From the NCBI GenBank assembly GCA_022563395.1, contig JADFNM010000001.1, positions 398,342-462,341 on the forward strand: a DNA stretch of 64,000 nucleotides, read 5' to 3'. The stretch comes from Patescibacteria group bacterium (GTDB taxonomy: Bacteria; Patescibacteriota; Minisyncoccia; Minisyncoccales; UBA10102). A program made the translations under genes and the position numbers. A model generated the notes under the pieces. That model was given only the letters and a program-made list of their open reading frames with translations. It ran no database searches and was not told the DNA's origin. The first letter of the stretch is position 1. Each line of letters starts with the position of its first letter. This document shows, one piece after another, positions 22,567 to 46,413 of this stretch.

Positions 22567-22597
22567 CCGCCGAAGGCGGATACCTTATTGTTTATTT
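22567..22597 (+). terminator. hairpin CCGCC-GAA-GGCGG + T-rich tail
   Basis: It lies downstream of the methyltransferase stop. The tail is ATACCTTATTGTTTATTT. Confidence 0.4.
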
Positions 22598-22665
22598 GGC
22601 GGAGGGGGTGAGATTCGCCATATCATTCGATATGGCGCCCTGTCGAATGACAGGGCGAACCTCAC
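22597..22665 (-). ncRNA. twin-hairpin element, copy 1 (candidate structured RNA; T-arm/acceptor-CCA-like flanks)
   Basis: The minus strand reads GTGAGGTTCGCC[CTGTC-ATTC-GACAG]GGCGCC[ATATC-GAAT-GATAT]GGCGAATCTCAC-CCCCTCCG-CCA. A second copy at 31969-32038 has compensatory stem changes. Confidence 0.4.
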
Positions 22666-22910
22666 TTTAATACGTCTCGATATTGCTGTCGAAATAATCT
22701 CTTTCCCTCGGTCGTCTTCAAGAATCGCTCTCTTCTCTGTGCATCGCTCTTCAGGAGGTATGCTTCATATCCTATCAGCTTAAGTGGTCGCAGTGATGTC
22801 GTTGCTCGCACATTTCCGATTTCGTGTTCCTTTGTTCGTCTACGCAAATCGTTCGTAGAACCAGTATAAATCCTCCTATTTCTGAGGCGAAGAAAATATA
22901 CATAGTACAT
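22662..22910 (-). CDS. small GIY-YIG nuclease family protein
   Basis: MYYVYFLRLRNRRIYTGSTNDLRRRTKEH.. carries GIY-YIG, Arg and Glu motifs. The start is trimmed to 22910 because the longer track ORF reads through tRNA-Ser. Confidence 0.8.
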   Translation of the reverse strand: MYYVYFLRLRNRRIYTGSTNDLRRRTKEHEIGNVRATTSLRPLKLIGYEAYLLKSDAQRRERFLKTTEGKRLFRQQYRDVLK

Positions 22911-22913
22911 GTG

Positions 22914-23000
22914 CGGCGGGAGAGGGATTCGAACCCCCGATACCCTTTCAAGTATAGCAGTTTTCAAGACTGCCCCATTCATCCGCTCTGGCATCCCGCC
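22914..23000 (-). tRNA. tRNA-Ser(TGA)
   Basis: Hand fold: acceptor GGCGGGA/TCCCGCC, anticodon arm GCAGT-CTTGAAA-ACTGC, long variable arm, T-loop TTCGAAT. No encoded CCA. Confidence 0.9.
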
Positions 23001-23011
23001 TATACAATAAA

Positions 23012-23101
23012 TTAAAGCTGGTGGCGGTGGGGGTGGGATTCGAACCCACGAGAGGATTTCTCCCCTAGCACATTAGCAGTGTGCTGCTTTCAACCGCTCA
23101 G
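23012..23101 (-). tRNA. tRNA-Ser(GCT)
   Basis: Acceptor GGTGGGG/CCCCACC, anticodon arm GCACA-CTGCTAA-TGTGC, long variable arm, CCA encoded. Confidence 0.9.
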
Positions 23102-23219
23102 CCACCCCACCTAACTCTTTCTATTCTATCTTATTTCCCGAATATTTCAACCTTTGAATTTCTTCTCGGATTCTGGTATATTCAAAGCGCATATCTCCTT
23201 AAGAAGACTGAGGAGCCAT

Positions 23220-23291
23220 GCTCCCGTAGTTTAACGGACAGAATGAGGGATTGCGGATCCCTTGATACAGGTTCGATTCCTGTCGGGAGCA
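23220..23291 (+). tRNA. tRNA-Arg(GCG)
   Basis: Acceptor GCTCCCG/CGGGAGC, anticodon arm AGGGA-TTGCGGA-TCCCT, T arm ACAGG-TTCGATT-CCTGT. Confidence 0.8.
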
Positions 23292-23292
23292 C

Positions 23293-31918: not shown

Positions 31919-31952
31919 GCAAAAGGGGGGTCTGACCCCCCTTTTGCTTTGT
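31919..31952. terminator. bidirectional terminator GCAAAAGGGGGGTC-tga-CCCCCCTTTTGC
   Basis: A perfect long stem directly after the hsp20 stop, with T runs on both strands. Confidence 0.75.
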
Positions 31953-31968
31953 GACCCCCCTTTTGCTT

Positions 31969-32038
31969 TGGTGCGCCCGGGAGGATTCGCCCTATGATAA
32001 ACATAGGGCGCCCCGTGTTCATCACGGGGCGAACCTCA
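31969..32038 (-). ncRNA. twin-hairpin element, copy 2 (candidate structured RNA), 8 nt after tRNA-Leu(TAG)
   Basis: The minus strand reads GAGGTTCGCC[CCGTG-ATGAA-CACGG]GGCGCC[CTATG-TTTAT-CATAG]GGCGAATCCTC-CCGGGCGC-ACCA. Confidence 0.4.
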
Positions 32039-32045
32039 TGTGATG

Positions 32046-32127
32046 TGGGCAGGGTGGGAGTTGAACCCACAAGCCTTGCGGCGCTAGCTCCTAAAGCTAG
32101 TGCGTTTGCCAGTTTCGCCACCTGCCC
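32046..32127 (-). tRNA. tRNA-Leu(TAG)
   Basis: Acceptor GGGCAGG/CCTGCCC, anticodon arm CTAGC-TTTAGGA-GCTAG, long variable arm. Confidence 0.9.
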
Positions 32128-32218: not shown

Positions 32219-32743
32219 TTACGTTACAATGCTCCGCAAGATAGCGGGGAATCCTGCTGCCATCAAAGCAATGGCAATGCCAATTAAGGCATAGATGAGC
32301 TTTTGTCTTGCACCCGAAACTTGTGCAGGATCCCCTCCTCCAGTCACAAACTGGAAGGCAGCCAAGACAATGTAGATTAAAGATATTGCCAGAAACACGG
32401 CAAAGACCCAGTTGGCAATGATTTGAATACGAGCAAGTATTGCGCCACCAGATTGTGGCACTTCACTCTCTGTTCCAAGACGGAAATTAGCTGGGGGAAT
32501 TTCGCCCGTACCTGAATTACAATCAGCCTTTGTTGCGTACACGGCACTCTTTGAAGCTTTGCAATAATCGCCTGCTTTTGCAGCAACACCTCCACATTCG
32601 CAGTCCGCTGTAACCGCTGCCTCACAATTACCTCCACCTACTGTGCTACACTCCGCCGCAGCAAAAACTGTGGCTGGAGCCAATAAGATCAGTAAGAAAA
32701 CTGCAAGAAAGAAAGTGAGGCCAATAGTTTGTATTCTTTTCAT
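32219..32743 (-). CDS. TrbC/VirB2-like mini-pilin paralog 5 (signal peptide, Cys-rich ectodomain, two C-terminal TM helices)
   Basis: 174 aa. The C-terminus reads ANWVFAVFLAISLIYIVLAAFQFVTGGGDPAQVSGARQKLIYALIGIAIALMAAGFPAILRSIVT. Confidence 0.75.
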   Translation of the reverse strand: MKRIQTIGLTFFLAVFLLILLAPATVFAAAECSTVGGGNCEAAVTADCECGGVAAKAGDYCKASKSAVYATKADCNSGTGEIPPANFRLGTESEVPQSGGAILARIQIIANWVFAVFLAISLIYIVLAAFQFVTGGGDPAQVSGARQKLIYALIGIAIALMAAGFPAILRSIVT

Positions 32744-32747
32744 AGCT

Positions 32748-33179
32748 TTACGTCACAATGCTTCGGAGAATCGCAGGGAAACCGGCAGCCATTAAGGCAA
32801 TGGCAATTCCTATGAGAGCGTAGATTAACTTTTGGCGAGCTCCTGACACCTGGGCAGGATCCCCTCCTCCAGTCACAAACTGGAAGGCAGCCAAGAGAAT
32901 GTAGATTAAAGATATTGCCAGGAATATGGCAAAGACCCAGTTTGCGATAAGACCGATACGGCCAAGAATTTCTGAACCTGAACTAGGTGCCTCTTCGGTG
33001 GTTCCAAGGCGAAAGCTGGTATCTGGTAGTTTGCTCTCATTAACACAAAGTCCGCCGCTACAAATGAAGCCAGTGCCGCACTCAGCGTTTGTGGTGCAAC
33101 TGTCTCCCTCTACAGCAAACACAGCAACTGGAGAGAAAATGAGCACAAAAAGGAAGATTATTCCCAAAAGTATTTTCAT
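32748..33179 (-). CDS. TrbC/VirB2-like mini-pilin paralog 4
   Basis: 143 aa. The last 47 aa are identical to paralog 5, but the codons differ. Confidence 0.75.
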   Translation of the reverse strand: MKILLGIIFLFVLIFSPVAVFAVEGDSCTTNAECGTGFICSGGLCVNESKLPDTSFRLGTTEEAPSSGSEILGRIGLIANWVFAIFLAISLIYILLAAFQFVTGGGDPAQVSGARQKLIYALIGIAIALMAAGFPAILRSIVT

Positions 33180-33212
33180 ACTATTGCCAAATATGCGTTC
33201 AAACTCGGCCTC

Positions 33213-33632
33213 TTAGGTTAATATACTTCTTAGCACATCATCTACCCCGTTGGCAAGGAGGGCAAGCCCAATGCCAATAATGGCATAGAGGAGACGCCTC
33301 TTGGCAGAAGAGACCTTTTCTGGGTTTCCCTCACCTGTTACGAACTCAAACGCCCCCCAAACGAGAAAGATAATAGAAATTGCAAGAAAGATGGCAAAAA
33401 CCCATTCTCCAACCCGTTGAATAATCTGTAGGACAGCTCCTGCCGTCTGGGGACCCTCTGGTAATTCTGCCAAGCACTCATTACTTATACTGCATGTCAA
33501 TCCAGAGTTACACGTTCCTCCGGGTCCGCACGGCTCTCCGAGTCCCTGTGCAAACACAGACCCTCCTGCCAGTACAAAAATAAGGAGGGCTGTTCCAATC
33601 CCAAAAAGTAAAATATACCTTGCGGGTTTCAT
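33213..33632 (-). CDS. TrbC/VirB2-like mini-pilin paralog 3
   Basis: 139 aa with GEWVFAIFLAISIIFLVWGAFEFVTGEGNPEKVSSAKRRLLYAIIGIGLALL. Confidence 0.7.
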   Translation of the reverse strand: MKPARYILLFGIGTALLIFVLAGGSVFAQGLGEPCGPGGTCNSGLTCSISNECLAELPEGPQTAGAVLQIIQRVGEWVFAIFLAISIIFLVWGAFEFVTGEGNPEKVSSAKRRLLYAIIGIGLALLANGVDDVLRSILT

Positions 33633-33638
33633 TAAGCT

Positions 33639-33995
33639 TTATCCTACCAGAATATTCCTCAAAATATCGTCAAAACCTGCAGCCAAGAGAGCAATGGCAA
33701 TTCCTACTGCAGCATAAATGAGCTTTTGGCGCGCCGCAGTCACCTGGGCCGGGTCACCACCACCGGTCACAAACTGGAAGGCAGCCAAAATAATATAGAT
33801 GATTGACATTGCCAGGAAAATGGCAAAGACCCAATTGCCAATTAAGGCAATGCGGTCAAGCAGGTCAGCTCCCGTTTGTGGGCCTTCAGGAAGCCCATTG
33901 GTAGGGTGTTCTCCTCCATGAACAGCCATTGCTACCGGGGCTCCCACCATGACCAGCAGACTCACCGCTAGCATAATACCAAATACTATTTTCAT
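33639..33995 (-). CDS. TrbC/VirB2-like mini-pilin paralog 2 (no Cys-rich region)
   Basis: 118 aa with GNWVFAIFLAMSIIYIILAAFQFVTGGGDPAQVTAARQKLIYAAVGIAIALL. Confidence 0.7.
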   Translation of the reverse strand: MKIVFGIMLAVSLLVMVGAPVAMAVHGGEHPTNGLPEGPQTGADLLDRIALIGNWVFAIFLAMSIIYIILAAFQFVTGGGDPAQVTAARQKLIYAAVGIAIALLAAGFDDILRNILVG

Positions 33996-34027
33996 TCTTT
34001 TTGTTTATTGCTTCAATTATGTGAAAC

Positions 34028-34041
34028 CTCGACCTTTCTGT
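34028..34041 (-). promoter_or_regulatory. 14-nt motif ACAGAAAGGTCGAG, 32 nt upstream of the mini-pilin ATG
   Basis: It matches 12377-12390 exactly in sequence and in distance to the start codon. Confidence 0.4.
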
Positions 34042-34064
34042 ATCATAGCACCAAATGGGAATTG

Positions 34065-34502
34065 TTAAAACCCTATGATAGCCCGCAAGACCACAATCAG
34101 TCCTTTAGCCAGCAAGATAATCACAAATCCTACCGCAGTCCATAAAAGAATACGCTTGGCAGTAGAGATGCGCTCTGGGCTTCCTCCTGCCGTTACAAAC
34201 ATAATACCTGCCACCACTATCATAAGAGGGGTTAACAGCAAGGCAAAGTTAAAGAGAATGTCAAGAATGTTGTTTACAATACCAGTGAAGTTCTCGGTTT
34301 GAAGAGGATTGCAGATTTGAATCGTATCTTTTTCTTGGCACAGTCCCTGTGCTCCCTCCACAGCTCCCTGACAGACCAGATCTCCATCACAATTTGCATC
34401 CGTCTCACAAGCACCACACACCGGAGCAGCGTCTATTCTTTCAACAAAGCTTCCTCCAAACAAGAAAGCTATAAACACAACCAAAATCAGGGCCTTTTTC
34501 AT
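34065..34502 (-). CDS. TrbC/VirB2-like mini-pilin paralog 1 (most divergent)
   Basis: 145 aa with a signal peptide, a Cys-rich region (CGACETDANCDGDLVC) and LLLTPLMIVVAGIMFVTAGGSPERISTAKRILLWTAVGFVIILL. Confidence 0.65.
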   Translation of the reverse strand: MKKALILVVFIAFLFGGSFVERIDAAPVCGACETDANCDGDLVCQGAVEGAQGLCQEKDTIQICNPLQTENFTGIVNNILDILFNFALLLTPLMIVVAGIMFVTAGGSPERISTAKRILLWTAVGFVIILLAKGLIVVLRAIIGF

Positions 34503-34646: not shown

Positions 34647-35645
34647 ATGAGGAGACACATGGGACTGATGGTTTTCTTGCTTGCCACTGTCTTCTTGATA
34701 GCGGCATGCGTAGAGGACCCGCAAGGACCCAAGGAAGACACCGGAGGAACAGACTCACGAGGACTGCAAGGAGAACCAGGGCCTCAAGGCATACAAGGAG
34801 AACCAGGAACTCAAGGAGTCCAAGGAGAACCAGGGCCTCAGGGCATACAAGGAGAACCAGGAACTCAAGGAGTCCAAGGAGAACCAGGGCCTCAGGGCAT
34901 ACAAGGAGAAGGAGGGGAGCCGGGGCCAAGGGGAGATAAAGGAGACAAAGGAGAGTCTCCAAGCGAAGATGAGCTCATTAAGCTCCTCAACCAGATAGTG
35001 AATCCTCCTATTCCAACCCCAGAACCCTTGGAGGGCTCCTATCAAGCTCCCAATCCTCGTTTCGTGTTTAGCTACACGACAAAAGATGACGAGGAGGAGA
35101 TAGGCGGATTAGACATCTACCTCATCTCAGACCCGGTCTTTGACCACCCTGGATGCCCTGCGCAAGCCGAAGTATTCGGCCAAAGTGCGAGAGGAGATAG
35201 CGTTCGATGCAGGTTTAATCCTTTACTCCTGCTTACGTGGGTCAAAGAATTCTCTCTGGCAAGCGAGCTTCCTGAAGAAGGTATGGAGTGGGGCGTATAC
35301 GCCACTCTCACGCCCTACCAGGAACCGTGGCCTGTGCCAGAAGAAGCACAAGGACCCAAACCCAGATTCCTCGTACAGCTTGAAGCGTTTGGGCAGGAAC
35401 ATTCAGGAAACATCCTGCTCACCGTATTCCCGAAAGGCAAAGAACCCACTCCTCGGTGTCCTGACCAGGCAGATAAAGGGAACATAATAACTGAGGGAGA
35501 AACTGAGTACTATCGTTGTATCGCGTCTCCTGTGGCCACGCTTGCGTGGCTCCAGAAGTTCTCCCTTGTTAAAGATCTCCCCCCTCGCGAGGAATGGGAG
35601 GAGACCTATGCCATCTTCCCTGCGATCTTCCCCTGGGAGACGTAA
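34647..35645 (+). CDS. collagen-triple-helix-repeat lipoprotein with duplicated C-terminal domain
   Basis: Lipobox FLIAAC, about 21 G-X-Y triplets (GLQGEPGPQGIQGEPGTQGVQ..), then two homologous ~95-aa modules (PNPRFVFSY..EPWPVPEE and PKPRFLVQL..IFPWE). Confidence 0.8.
   Translation: MRRHMGLMVFLLATVFLIAACVEDPQGPKEDTGGTDSRGLQGEPGPQGIQGEPGTQGVQGEPGPQGIQGEPGTQGVQGEPGPQGIQGEGGEPGPRGDKGDKGESPSEDELIKLLNQIVNPPIPTPEPLEGSYQAPNPRFVFSYTTKDDEEEIGGLDIYLISDPVFDHPGCPAQAEVFGQSARGDSVRCRFNPLLLLTWVKEFSLASELPEEGMEWGVYATLTPYQEPWPVPEEAQGPKPRFLVQLEAFGQEHSGNILLTVFPKGKEPTPRCPDQADKGNIITEGETEYYRCIASPVATLAWLQKFSLVKDLPPREEWEETYAIFPAIFPWET
34761..34952 (+). repeat. collagen-like G-X-Y coding repeat (54-bp unit x ~3)
   Basis: caaggagaaccagggcctcagggcatacaaggagaaccaggaactcaaggagtc is reiterated. 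Confidence 0.9.
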
Positions 35646-35700: not shown

Positions 35701-38208
35701 CTACAAACTTGCGGCTGAGGCCACCTTGTCTTTCTCGTCAAGCCTCATGATTCTGACCCCTTGCGTAGAGCGGCTTATCTTTGCAATGTCTGCAATGGCA
35801 GTACGGATAACCTGGCCCTTTCTTGAAATAACAATAAGGTCTTCTTCCTCGCCAGAAAGCGCCTTGGCATACACCAGGTTTCCTGTTTTTGCGGTAATGT
35901 TTGCGGTTTTAATGCCAGACCCCCCTCTGGTTTGTACCCGGTATTCTTTTAAGGAAGTGCGCTTGCCATACCCATTTTCCGTGAGAATCAAAAGATAATC
36001 ACCCTCTTTTGGAAGCTTAGCTTCCAAGTCCTTGGAAGCTAAGCTTCCATTATTCCCAGCAATAACATCCATGCCAACCACCTCATCTCCCTTTTTTAAG
36101 CGAATGGCCCGGGTTCCGGCCGCGGTTCTGCCCATAGCCCGTGCATCTTTTTCCTTAAACCGAATAGACTGACCCTTTTTGGTAGTGACAATAATCTGGT
36201 CTTGTCCCGTACTCTTTCTCACAATTCTCAGTTCATCCCCTTTTTTTAAGGAAATTGCAATAAGGCCGGACTTTCTCACGTTCTTAAAATCTTCCAGCGG
36301 CGTCTTTTTGACAAGCCCGTCCTTGGTAGTCATAACCATATACTTTATGCCTTGCTCAGTATCCTTTTTCCCAAGGGCAAAGAGGTTAAGAACCTTGTCA
36401 TTTGAGCTCAGCTCAACAAAGTTTAACAGGCCACGGCCTTTTGCCACCCTGGTTCCTTCTGGAATCTCGTACACGGGCAGCTGAAACACCTTTCCAGAAT
36501 CGGTAAAGACCATTAAAGAATCGTGGGTATTGCAGTACAAAAAGTGCTCTACAATGTCGTCTGACACGGTCTTCATGCCAATAATGCCCTTGCCCCCTCT
36601 TTTTTGGAGCTTGTAGGTGGCAGGGTTGATGCGCTTTATATACCCACCCTGGGTTAAGGTAATAATGGTTTCTTCTTTTGCAACCAAATCTTCTTCTGCA
36701 ATCTCCCCCACCCCAGCAACTTGTACCCTGGTTCTCCGTTCATCCCCAAAGGTTTCTTTAGCGGCCGCAAACTCTTTTTTGATGACCTCATCTATTTTCT
36801 TTGAAGATGCCAAGGTGACAGTGAGTTCTTTAATCTTTACCCTCATTTCTTTTAACTCGTCTTCAATCTTTTTGCGCTCCAGCTTTGCCAGCTGGGCTAA
36901 TCTCATATCCAGAATGGCGTTTGCTTGAAGTTCCGAAAGCCTAAAGGCTTTTTGCAATTTGATCTTTGCGTCGTCGCGGTGTTGAGCTGCCCGAATAAGC
37001 TTAATAACTTTATCAATGTTTGCCAAACACTTGTGCAAACCTTCCAAAATGTGTGCTCGGTCCTTTGCCTGAGTCAGGTCATACCGGAGGCGGCGCTGCA
37101 CCACCTGACGCCGGTGCTCTATAAAATACTGGAGAATCTCAACCAAAGAAAGAACCTTGGGCTGAATGCCGTCTACCAAAGCTAAAAGGTTTACGTGAAA
37201 GGTCTTTTGAAAGTCAGAGAACTTGTACAGACGGTTTAAAATCTTTTGGGGGTAAGCATCTCTTTGCAGATCAAAAACAATTCTCATGCCGTCCTTGTCT
37301 GACTCATCTCGAATGTCGCGGATTCCGTCAATCTTTTTTTCCTGGACCAGCTTTGCAAACTGCTTTACCAAAGATGCCTTGTTCACCTGAAAAGGAATCT
37401 CGGTAATGATAATCTGGGGTTTCTTTTGGTCTTCTGTAATCTCTGCCTTTCCTCTCATTACAATTGGTCCCTTGCCCTGAGAATAGACAGCAATGATTTC
37501 TCGTTTATTGAAAATGGTGCCTCCGGTTGGAAAGTCTGGCCCTTTGATAAAAGAAAAGAGGTCTTCGGTGGTGGCTTTTTGGTGTTCAATTAAGAAGTTT
37601 AAGGCATCAATCAGTTCCCGTAAGTTATGGGGTGGGATATTGGTTGCCATGCCCACTGCAATTCCCAGGGTTCCGTTCAAAAGCAGCTGAGGCACGGGGG
37701 AGGGAAGCACCACGGGTTCTTTTCTGGTGCCGTCGTAGTTATCAACAAAATCCACCGTATCCTTGCCAATATCACGGAGCAGCTCTTCTCCTATCTTGGA
37801 CATTCTGGCTTCTGAGTAGCGCATGGCAGCCGCACTGTCCCCATCTATAGATCCAAAGTTTCCCTGCCCATCAATTAGAGGGTATCTTAATTCAAAATTC
37901 TGGGCCATGCGAACCAAAGAATCATAGACCGCGGTGTCTCCGTGCGGGTGATAGCGTCCCAAAGTACTTCCCACTACCGTAGCTGATTTTCGGTATTTTG
38001 CAGTATGTGTTAAACCGTCCTCGTGCATGGCAAACAAGATTCTGCGGTGCACAGGTTTTAAGCCGTCTCTCACATCGGGCAGGGCGCGAGCCACAATAAC
38101 AGACATTGCATAGTCCAAGTAGGACTCGCGCATCTCTTCCACGATTTCTCGGGGCTGAACCACACCTATTGCTGCCTTTTCTTCACTATTGTCCTTGGCT
38201 TTGGCCAT
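35701..38208 (-). CDS. gyrA: DNA gyrase subunit A
   Basis: 835 aa with [15 protein letters not shown], the active-site region [10 protein letters not shown] and C-terminal beta-pinwheel repeats. Confidence 0.95.
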
Positions 38209-46327: not shown

Positions 46328-46400
46328 GGGCACGTAGCTCAATGGTTAGAGCACCAAGCTTATACCTTGGCGGTTCCTGGTTCGAGTCCAGGCGTGCCCA
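46328..46400 (+). tRNA. tRNA-Ile(TAT)
   Basis: Acceptor GGGCACG/CGTGCCC, anticodon arm CCAAG-CTTATAC-CTTGG (anticodon UAU), T-loop TTCGAGT. Confidence 0.85.
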
Positions 46401-46413
46401 CTAGTATAATCCT

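Follow-up and report, generated by a model that had tools for sequence, protein, structure and literature searches.

Two elements of about 70 nt in a 64,000-nt stretch of Patescibacteria DNA (the window, to which all positions refer) each consist of two adjacent hairpins, a twin hairpin (TH), set into what looks like the 3′ end of a tRNA gene. Both are read on the minus strand. The question that this locus raises is what a TH is doing inside such a piece of a tRNA gene. We propose an answer that was absent from the initial annotation of this DNA: the elements would be the borders of a selfish cassette, built around a GIY-YIG nuclease gene, that enters tRNA genes of Patescibacteria at their loops, and the TH would most likely be the branched DNA of that cassette. 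We assign this reading a probability of about 0.7.

Twin hairpins adjoin displaced tRNA 3′ ends

Copy 1 lies at positions 22665-22597 and copy 2 at positions 32039-31969. As the initial annotation had stated, they share a common frame, GGTTC-GCC-(5/6 bp arm, loop, arm)-GGC-GCC-(arm, loop, arm)-GGC-GAATC, which occurs exactly twice in the window and not once in 100 shuffles. An unfiltered covariance model run over the 64 kb returned the two copies only (79 and 46 bits), with the next best match at 14 bits. The core of copy 1 (22617..22656) reads GCCCTGTC-ATTC-GACAGGGC followed by GCCATATC-GAAT-GATATGGC. The core of copy 2 (31989..32030) reads GCCCCGTG-ATGAA-CACGGGGC followed by GCCCTATG-TTTAT-CATAGGGC and belongs to an ATGAA/TTTAT-loop subclass that we also found at loci L045, L077, L104, L143, L149, and L160 of the collection described below. 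The four inner arm pairs differ between the copies and are complementary in each, as had been claimed; the stems, however, are longer than proposed, namely 8 bp, because the seemingly invariant GCC and GGC triplets are part of them. In its general form, a TH is a GCC-NN-GTC-ATYC-GAC-NN-GGC unit on one strand followed by the identical unit on the opposite strand, which gives two adjacent perfect palindromes.

Folded as RNA, the elements form a perfect three-way junction without unpaired junction bases, composed of an outer T-arm-like stem and two adjacent 8-bp hairpins, with energies of -39.2 kcal/mol for copy 1 (z -8.8) and -37.7 kcal/mol for copy 2 (z -4.3). The outer stem of copy 1, GUGAGGUUC/GAAUCUCAC, closes both hairpins. 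When the two strands were folded as DNA, they were about equivalent (-20.3/-19.0 kcal/mol for copy 1 and -21.3/-22.1 kcal/mol for copy 2). No T run lies directly 3′ of either TH, so neither has the makeup of an intrinsic terminator.

Deleting the 40-42-nt core restores GAGG-TTC/GAAT-CCTC followed by 7 nt, a discriminator base, and CCA, which is the T arm and 3′ acceptor strand of a tRNA. In both copies, the core falls precisely between the T-loop bases C56 and G57. To its left stands a short pseudo-T-arm flank made of the T-stem 5′ strand and the T-loop TTC in copy 1 (GTGAGGTTC, 22657..22665), and ATGAGGTTC in copy 2 (32031..32039), about 6 nt past the end of tRNA-Leu(TAG). To its right, copy 1 carries a displaced tRNA-Ser 3′ remnant (positions 57-76 of the tRNA; 22597..22616; GAAT-CTCAC-CCCCTCC-G-CCA), and this flank, GAATCTCACCCCCTCCGCCA, has 19/20 identity with the 3′ end of a tRNA-Ser(TGA) on another contig. 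Copy 2 carries an Arg-type remnant (31969..31988; GAAT-CCTCC-CGGGCGC-A-CCA), and its flank, GAATCCTCCCGGGCGCACCA, is identical at 20/20 positions to the 3′ end of a tRNA-Arg(GCG) on another contig. The T-stem, acceptor strand, discriminator, and CCA recognized by the initial annotation are thus real tRNA 3′ ends. Neither ARAGORN nor Rfam (RF00005) called a complete tRNA at either element, where only positions about 49-76 are present, interrupted at 56/57, and neither program found a 5′ half before either copy, in line with the earlier observation.

The suggestion of an independent RNA gene with a tRNA-like CCA end did not survive this comparison: the tRNA-like tails are the left-over 3′ ends of invaded tRNA genes. 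In other genomes, the TH follows tRNA 5′ halves without any CCA tail. The view that no described family has this layout held up. An Rfam 15 scan at gathering thresholds returned 16 tRNAs only, E-value scans of both elements gave nothing above chance for the TH, and we found no published description.

Copy 1 forms the distal end of an apparently complete unit, tRNA-Ser(TGA), GIY-YIG open reading frame (ORF), TH, and Ser 3′ remnant. The intact tRNA-Ser(TGA) (22913..23000, minus strand) lies immediately 5′ of the ORF (22662..22910, minus strand), whose ATG at 22910 is 3 nt past the discriminator base of the tRNA and whose stop codon TGA (22664-22662) falls within the left flank, and hence the outer stem, of copy 1. 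Copy 2 follows the intact tRNA-Leu(TAG) (32045..32127, minus strand). As the nuclease ORF is missing between this tRNA and the TH, the unit tRNA-Leu(TAG), TH, and Arg-type 3′ remnant is an ORF-less derivative or relic. Both copies had been placed at the 3′ end of tRNA transcription units; copy 1 stands behind the nuclease ORF and not directly behind a tRNA. The copy 1 unit begins with an intact tRNA-Ser(GCT) (23022..23111, minus strand), preceded by a promoter-like site (23150-23123, minus strand). An intrinsic-terminator-like hairpin (31921..31944, minus strand) lies 3′ of copy 2, outside the element, so that the TH of copy 2 falls inside the tRNA transcription unit. The TH is co-transcribed with the tRNAs.

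Twin hairpins recur at the breakpoints of truncated tRNA genes

If the elements were more than a local curiosity, further copies with covarying stems should exist, as the initial annotation had reasoned. The covariance model found the window copies only within the 64 kb; pattern scans found many more elsewhere, and their stems covary. Searching one genome per species for the exact pattern gave 34 loci. About 10 of these proved to be genuine twin hairpins; most came from Patescibacteria, and Bdellovibrionales, Victivallales, and Gammaproteobacteria contributed one each, in metagenome-assembled genomes. The remaining matches (about two-thirds) came from GC-rich genomes, had no hairpins, and were discarded as chance. 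A pattern scan of metagenomes yielded at least 120 loci. Among the matches listed, a hairpin-pair finder counted 92 THs in 76 loci, again mostly from Patescibacteria, and tRNA genes and ORFs in these loci were annotated by ARAGORN and tblastn. tRNA genes adjoin the THs almost without exception; those for Ser are much more frequent than any others, and Gln, Lys, Leu, Arg, Tyr, Thr, Ile, and Asn come next. A homologue of the window GIY-YIG ORF lies within a few hundred nucleotides in 39/76 loci, and 37/76 have no GIY match.

The position of the TH is constant: it is always the breakpoint of a truncated copy of a tRNA gene. One flank is a real tRNA fragment. The other keeps only 5-8 nt of T arm before giving way to the nuclease ORF or to a short spacer, beside an intact tRNA gene, and this intact gene usually duplicates the fragment. 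Not one of the 89 oriented THs is inside an otherwise complete tRNA.

From a close reading of L008 and L015 and a classification of the flanks of all loci, we distinguished four layouts, given here in the sense of the tRNA. In layout A (24 ORFs), a tRNA 5′ part (1-56) is followed by the TH, GAATC(C), the ORF, and an intact copy of that tRNA; most of the 5′ fragments agree with the intact gene at 54-56/56 positions. Layout B runs from an intact tRNA through the ORF, (N)GGTTC, and the TH to a 3′ part (57-76), and comprises 4 ORFs (window copy 1, L040, L139, and L150). Layout C has an intact tRNA, a short spacer, GGTTC, the TH, and a 3′ part, without the ORF; it is represented by many loci, including window copy 2, and at least 22 of its remnants are 17/17 identical to the adjacent tRNA. 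Layout D combines A and C around one intact tRNA (L003, L015, L079, L087, L131, and L160). Tandem arrays of TH, 3′ part, and spacer occur in L003, L087, L154, and L079. The ORF starts at a median of 18 nt past the TH in the commonest layout, or 1-3 nt past the tRNA, and ends a few nucleotides before the tRNA or TH. The opposed THs of L003 led us to consider transposon terminal inverted repeats, a possibility that we rejected, as the THs of L015, L079, L087, and L131 are direct repeats.

A second set of loci was independent of the pattern. Nine GIY-YIG homologues on long contigs were picked from a protein search regardless of any TH, and all nine had twin hairpins at a truncated-tRNA breakpoint directly beside the ORF. 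The hairpins lie 5′ of the ORF in 8/9 cases and 3′ of it in L158, where the stop codon is inside the second hairpin. In this set, the GCC/GGC hairpin bases and the GGTTC/GAATC flanks vary and are not obligatory; the conserved hairpin core is GTC-ATYC-GAC. In L155 (1800-2330), in L156 and L157 (L156:1800-2330), and in L163 (1000-1530), the truncated tRNA copy breaks off in the D loop rather than the T loop. The nuclease stop codon of L155, L156, and L163 lies within the 5′ part of the intact Arg(TCT), Lys(TTT), and Lys(CTT) gene, respectively. Divergent GIY-YIG genes (36-45% identity) in L096 (790-870), L101, and L106 have tRNA fragments and different hairpin pairs upstream of their ORFs, for example CCGCC-TAC-GGCGG with CCGCC-AAA-GGCGG, which suggests that each nuclease subfamily has its own type of hairpin.

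The cassette is found at different positions among syntenic Ser(GCT)/Ser(TGA)/Arg(GCG) clusters. The spacer between Ile(TAT) and Val(GAC) is empty in the window and filled by a TH and a remnant in L072, in a comparison of distant genomes. The arm pair ATATC and CTGTC stands beside Ser, Arg, and Asn tRNAs in different organisms. We take these three observations together as an argument for mobility. Where the 3′ remnant has diverged, the neighboring intact tRNA often has the T loop GAGTC, GATTC, or AACTC, not GAATC (L072, L104, L143, L148, L149, and window 32045-32127), and such T loops may be nuclease-resistant alleles.

Two loci of the collection have further peculiarities. In L161 (1020-1200), single hairpins of the TH type, CCCGGTC-ATCC-GACCGGG and TCAGGTC-GAAT-GACCTGA, occur at two further places of a 5′ tRNA-Ser remnant upstream of the TH. 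In L162 (1610-1720), a tRNA-Lys(CTT) 5′ part, a different short hairpin pair, and the 3′ part of another Lys tRNA stand in a row that looks like a T-loop-interrupted chimeric gene, and an additional, longer twin hairpin follows at 1800-1830.

The associated gene encodes a predicted Slx1-like nuclease

The window ORF encodes a GIY-YIG protein of 82 amino acids (Pfam PF01541, E 2.3e-12) of the UPF0213/Slx1-like kind, identical to an NCBI protein from 'Patescibacteria group bacterium' (P0001) encoded on a contig of 671,501 bp. Among 41 homologues, Y3, Y5, G17, R25, and E61 are invariant, and Y15 and H29 are at least 90% conserved, which agrees with the defining features of the GIY-YIG superfamily. 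A basic C-terminal segment, KTTEGKRL..QQYRD, is also highly conserved. The catalytic domain spans residues 1-70 and the rest is this short conserved basic C-terminal helix; there is no separate DNA-binding domain.

In the PDB, the sequence matches two UPF0213 proteins, BH0048 (1ZG2, E 1.6e-5) and EF2693 (1YWL). The structure was predicted with a pLDDT (predicted local distance difference test) score of 95.4, and Foldseek placed 1ZG2 and the Slx1 entries 6SEH, 7CQ3, and 6SEI on top (probability 1.00, TMq 0.63-0.65), with I-TevI (1LN0) lower (probability 0.38). The UPF0213 and Slx1 fold matches show 27-34% identity and a root mean square deviation of 2.0-2.5 Å, and the Slx1 nuclease domain comes from Slx1-Slx4 branched-DNA complexes. 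Sequence and model comparisons thus assign the predicted nuclease to the UPF0213/Slx1 subgroup and not to the I-TevI-type group of homing enzymes. A phage origin was rejected, as no viral contig matched the cassette and PHROGs held no match.

At positions 22680-22700 (minus strand), the codons for FRQQYRD (TTTCGACAGCAATATCGAGAC) echo the loop and 3′ arm of hairpin 1 and the 5′ arm and loop of hairpin 2 of copy 1. Other loci code for FRQQYRD without any likeness to their own hairpins, so the resemblance in copy 1 is probably a coincidence. A riboswitch-like alternative pairing of the TH with the upstream TTTCGACAGCAATATCGAG was rejected for the same reasons: the stretch encodes the conserved FRQQYRD, and the likeness is absent in other loci.

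Constraint on the hairpins points to DNA

To assess the structural constraint, we aligned 49 distinct canonical THs without gaps. Pairing reaches 99.0% in the first hairpin helix and 98.5% in the second, and each of the 10 variable pairs has changes on both sides, with 128 compensatory versus 4 one-sided cells, which bears out the earlier proposal that the structure is under constraint. The covariation score was 0.320; shuffles gave 0.103, none of 500 reached 0.320, and slid controls stayed at or below 0.073. At the far end of the outer stem, the last three pairs form in only about half of the THs, as expected if only one flank is true tRNA. Variable loop positions do not covary (Fisher p = 1), and we therefore rejected loop-loop kissing, even though the ATYC and GRAT loops are complementary on average.

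The initial annotation had left open a functional RNA or a DNA cruciform. A cruciform or other branched DNA structure fits our data better, and a functional RNA less well. Column by column, hairpin 1 has the same base profile as hairpin 2 when the latter is reverse-complemented, indicating a single hairpin type that is placed once on each strand. The one-strand covariance model scored 79.3 and 46.1 bits, versus 74.9 and 41.4 bits on the opposite strand. G·T pairs account for 8/687 stem pairs and are no commoner than A·C (14), whereas G·U amounts to 4.0% in the acceptor and T stems of 145 tRNAs encoded on these contigs, where other mismatches are almost nil (Fisher p = 5e-4). Moreover, the core occurs in both orientations: the core of window copy 1 is the exact reverse complement of that of L026, the upstream TH of L003 is the reverse complement of the downstream THs of that locus, and such a flip/flop was seen in 4/17 arm-pair groups found in more than one locus. 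The strand symmetry, the equal scores and folds of the two strands, the rarity of G·T compared with tRNA stems, and the two orientations together indicate that the TH most likely acts as a branched structure at the level of DNA rather than RNA.

Proposed mechanism and alternative explanations

The layouts can be accounted for as follows. The nuclease would break a tRNA gene at a loop, and recombinational repair from a cassette-bearing copy would insert either TH-ORF-tRNA 1-56 or tRNA 57-76-ORF-TH at the break. The cassette would bring along the tRNA part that it replaces, leaving the gene rebuilt and functional, with the old part displaced and capped by the TH. A D-type donor, combined with an alternative choice of homology, would produce layouts A and C, repeated invasion of the rebuilt T loop would generate the tandem arrays, and ORF-less units would be non-autonomous derivatives. 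The weakest step concerns the TH itself, which as a T-shaped three-way junction or cruciform might be bound or cut by the Slx1-like, structure-selective nuclease; the TH would also split the GGTTCGAATCC motif in the remnant.

A bolder version of this mechanism appears possible to us but stays tentative. Here the TH would be the branched-DNA handle of an undescribed class of mobile elements, whose 82-amino-acid Slx1-like nuclease finds its sites by DNA shape, not by sequence. The shapes in question would be the T-shaped TH and, in tRNA genes, the T and D arms, which tend to form hairpins; the tRNA genes would be broken at their loops. The cassette would then spread with a replacement piece of tRNA, in autonomous forms with the ORF and non-autonomous forms consisting of TH and remnant, across Patescibacteria and occasionally other phyla.

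Several points weigh against the cassette as we propose it. Homing is deduced from the layouts alone. The specificity of an 82-amino-acid protein without a separate DNA-binding domain is unexplained, and so is self-immunity, given that the intact tRNA beside the cassette usually keeps the T-loop motif. Among the fetched loci, there is no near-identical pair of contigs with and without the cassette, and the single empty-versus-filled case compares distant genomes. The window remnants differ from their adjacent tRNAs: that of copy 1 matches the intact tRNA-Ser(TGA) at only 13/17 positions, and that of copy 2 is unrelated to tRNA-Leu (10/17). Extra steps (co-conversion, rearrangement, or age) therefore have to be assumed, and we infer that these remnants are older, rearranged, or co-converted copies. 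Template-switch correction can keep palindromes perfect, so covariation alone is no proof of function. The blocks GGTTC, GCC, GGCGCC, GGC, and GAATC are invariant in the collection because the search pattern imposed them. Finally, the TH is co-transcribed with the tRNAs and precedes the start codon by a median of 18 nt in the commonest layout.

This last point leads to the possibility that the TH works as RNA, as a stable three-way-junction module in the tRNA/nuclease co-transcript that protects the end of the nuclease mRNA or directs its processing. The TH would form the mRNA 5′ end in the fragment-TH-ORF-tRNA layout and the 3′ end in the tRNA-ORF-TH layout. The RNA fold is extremely stable, THs lie within tRNA transcription units (with a promoter-like site ahead of tRNA-Ser(GCT) and a terminator after copy 2), and the spacing of ORF start and end is such that RNase P/Z-type processing would yield an mRNA with a TH at one end. 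We nevertheless regard an RNA role as unlikely. The two-fold symmetry of the hairpins has no RNA rationale, G·U is scarcer than in tRNA stems and does not exceed A·C, the core is found in both orientations, and many THs have no ORF nearby; in addition, the position of the TH relative to the ORF is inconsistent, whereas that relative to the tRNA breakpoint is constant. The many ORF-less THs (37/76 loci without a GIY match) would suit an independent palindromic insertion, similar to a miniature inverted-repeat transposable element, or a repair scar at TTC/GAA in T-arm-like DNA, with the GIY-YIG gene merely hitch-hiking and no cassette function. So would the single hairpin units elsewhere in the tRNA remnant of L161, the identical arm pairs beside unrelated tRNAs, and the TTCG...CGAA around the core, which can be read as a 2-bp CG duplication. 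Yet all nine independently sampled nuclease genes have twin hairpins at the breakpoint, none of the 89 oriented THs is simply inserted into the T loop of a complete tRNA, and one flank is always non-tRNA after 5-8 nt, unlike a simple insertion. Many contigs are also short, so the ORF may have been cut off. We regard a plain insertion or scar as less probable still than an RNA module.

Two other explanations start from the tRNA pieces. Integrative elements that target tRNA genes classically leave a duplicated tRNA 3′ end starting in the T arm, and the duplicated 3′ ends described here could accordingly be attachment-site remnants of an integrase-mediated island. Such an island would measure only about 80-430 bp, 5′ halves are duplicated too, and the associated gene is a GIY-YIG nuclease; no integrase lies nearby (the neighbors encode a methyltransferase, RecG, Hsp20, PrsW, and pilins), and no recombinase is associated with a TH in any locus read. 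This origin is highly improbable. We give least credence of all to the idea that the elements are halves of split tRNA genes whose transcripts are joined or assembled in trans, with the TH as a joining or processing signal. It would make sense of 5′ halves and 3′ halves that both meet the TH at T-loop position 56/57 and of the discriminator base and CCA on the 3′ halves. However, the halves duplicate the adjacent intact gene (54-56/56 or 17/17 identity), the window has no 5′ partner, intact Ser, Leu, and Arg genes are present so that the remnants match no need, and there are no complementary leader or trailer sequences and no bulge-helix-bulge motif. Split tRNAs and T-loop introns were therefore both rejected, the latter also because no complete tRNA interrupted by a TH was found. 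The mobile GIY-YIG cassette remains our preferred reading.

Relation to known systems

The principle of a selfish GIY-YIG gene that exploits tRNA genes is already known. SegB of phage T4 is a GIY-YIG homing endonuclease encoded in the phage tRNA gene cluster, recognizes GGTTCRANTCC, a motif of the TΨC stem-loop, and drives the inheritance of its own gene together with the flanking tRNA genes (PMC2330249). It is the closest and direct precedent for a GIY-YIG homing enzyme aimed at the tRNA T-arm motif. The two systems share a GIY-YIG gene among tRNA genes. The breakpoints of the TH cassette lie within the same T-arm motif, and the cassette takes different positions in related tRNA clusters. In contrast to the cassette protein, SegB is larger, has a recognition site of 27 bp, and cuts close to the CCA end, and the available description gives no counterpart to the conserved twin-hairpin border (PMC2330249). 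The cassette protein, for its part, is an 82-amino-acid catalytic domain only, of the UPF0213/Slx1 type, and the cassette has a cellular host, Patescibacteria, in which it leaves partial tRNA duplications. New here are an Slx1-like enzyme of minimal size, partial tRNA duplications that break precisely at a loop, and a conserved border of twin hairpins.

Slx1 and the YhbQ-type UPF0213 proteins give the best sequence and fold matches. According to the titles of the PDB entries, Slx1 processes branched DNA, and the TH is branched on either strand. Unlike the window protein, Slx1 has a RING domain and the partner Slx4, and the activity of the window protein is a prediction. We know of no mobile-element role of UPF0213 proteins and of no association with tRNA genes.

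In its architecture, the TH brings to mind the inverted terminal repeat (ITR) of adeno-associated virus (AAV), arranged as A-B-B′-C-C′-A′, a resemblance that we mention only as a lead. In both, an outer stem closes two short adjacent palindromes at a junction without unpaired bases, and the internal pair occurs in both orientations (for the TH, in 4/17 arm-pair groups, within L003, and between copy 1 and L026). AAV ITRs are the ends of a linear single-stranded DNA genome and are nicked by the HUH protein Rep during rolling-hairpin replication. The TH, in contrast, is chromosomal and internal, is paired with a GIY-YIG nuclease, and has no matches in viral contigs.

The cassette would resemble tRNA-targeted integrative elements in that both target a tRNA gene, restore it, and leave behind part of it as a displaced copy. 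It differs from them in having no recombinase, a size of tens to hundreds of base pairs, duplications of both 5′ and 3′ parts, and a hairpin border. With REP (repetitive extragenic palindrome)/REPIN-RAYT systems and IS200/IS605, it shares short extragenic palindromes with covarying stems, a small nuclease gene, and non-autonomous copies that outnumber the autonomous ones. Those systems use HUH (Y1) transposases and hairpins tagged with GTAG/CGTC, whereas the TH is associated with a GIY-YIG protein, head-to-head hairpins, and a breakpoint in a tRNA loop. Full-text literature searches on GIY-YIG proteins with tRNA, Candidate Phyla Radiation (CPR) or Patescibacteria, hairpins, and UPF0213/YhbQ found no account of such an arrangement; one paper, on insertions in the rRNA genes of CPR bacteria, mentions GIY-YIG only within those insertions (PMC11270868).

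The cassette would explain a recurrent oddity of Patescibacteria genomes, namely orphan tRNA halves and genes for a 'GIY-YIG nuclease family protein' wedged between tRNA genes, and would help annotators to recognize tRNA pseudo-fragments. It also ties the enigmatic stand-alone UPF0213/YhbQ-type nucleases to a concrete candidate DNA substrate. The cassette may drive the turnover of tRNA genes and their horizontal exchange in organisms with minimal genomes. If DNA shape does guide the nuclease, this would be the smallest known homing-type system, and the second case after T4 SegB of selfish GIY-YIG genes that exploit the universally conserved tRNA T arm.

Surroundings of the two elements

The neighboring genes of the window are bacterial and encode RecG, a PilB-type ATPase, PilM, PilO, TsaD, a class I aminoacyl-tRNA synthetase, Hsp20, and PrsW, in addition to the methyltransferase and pilins mentioned above. 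Right after copy 2, at positions 31921-31970 (minus strand), the 18-mer AAAGCAAAAGGGGGGTCA is tandemly duplicated, and the second of these repeats supplies the 5′ arm of a bidirectional terminator that also serves the convergent Hsp20 gene. A type IV secretion pilin (PF18895, TrbC/VirB2-like) is represented by four or more tandem paralogues at 32219-34502 (minus strand), immediately upstream of tRNA-Leu(TAG), and a fifth adjacent ORF (32219-32743) has no Pfam match. On the opposite strand to the pilins, a collagen-triple-helix-repeat protein is encoded at 34647-35645 (plus strand). Two adjacent 15-nt palindromes, GGAAGCTTAGCTTCC and GGAAGCTAAGCTTCC, stand 8 nt apart at 36012-36047; they are the weak 14-bit match of the covariance model and belong to an unrelated sequence type. 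Finally, the tRNA-Ile(TAT) at 46328-46401 and the tRNA-Arg(GCG) at 23220-23292 of the window have anticodons that are unusual for bacteria, and both recur in many of the fetched Patescibacteria loci.

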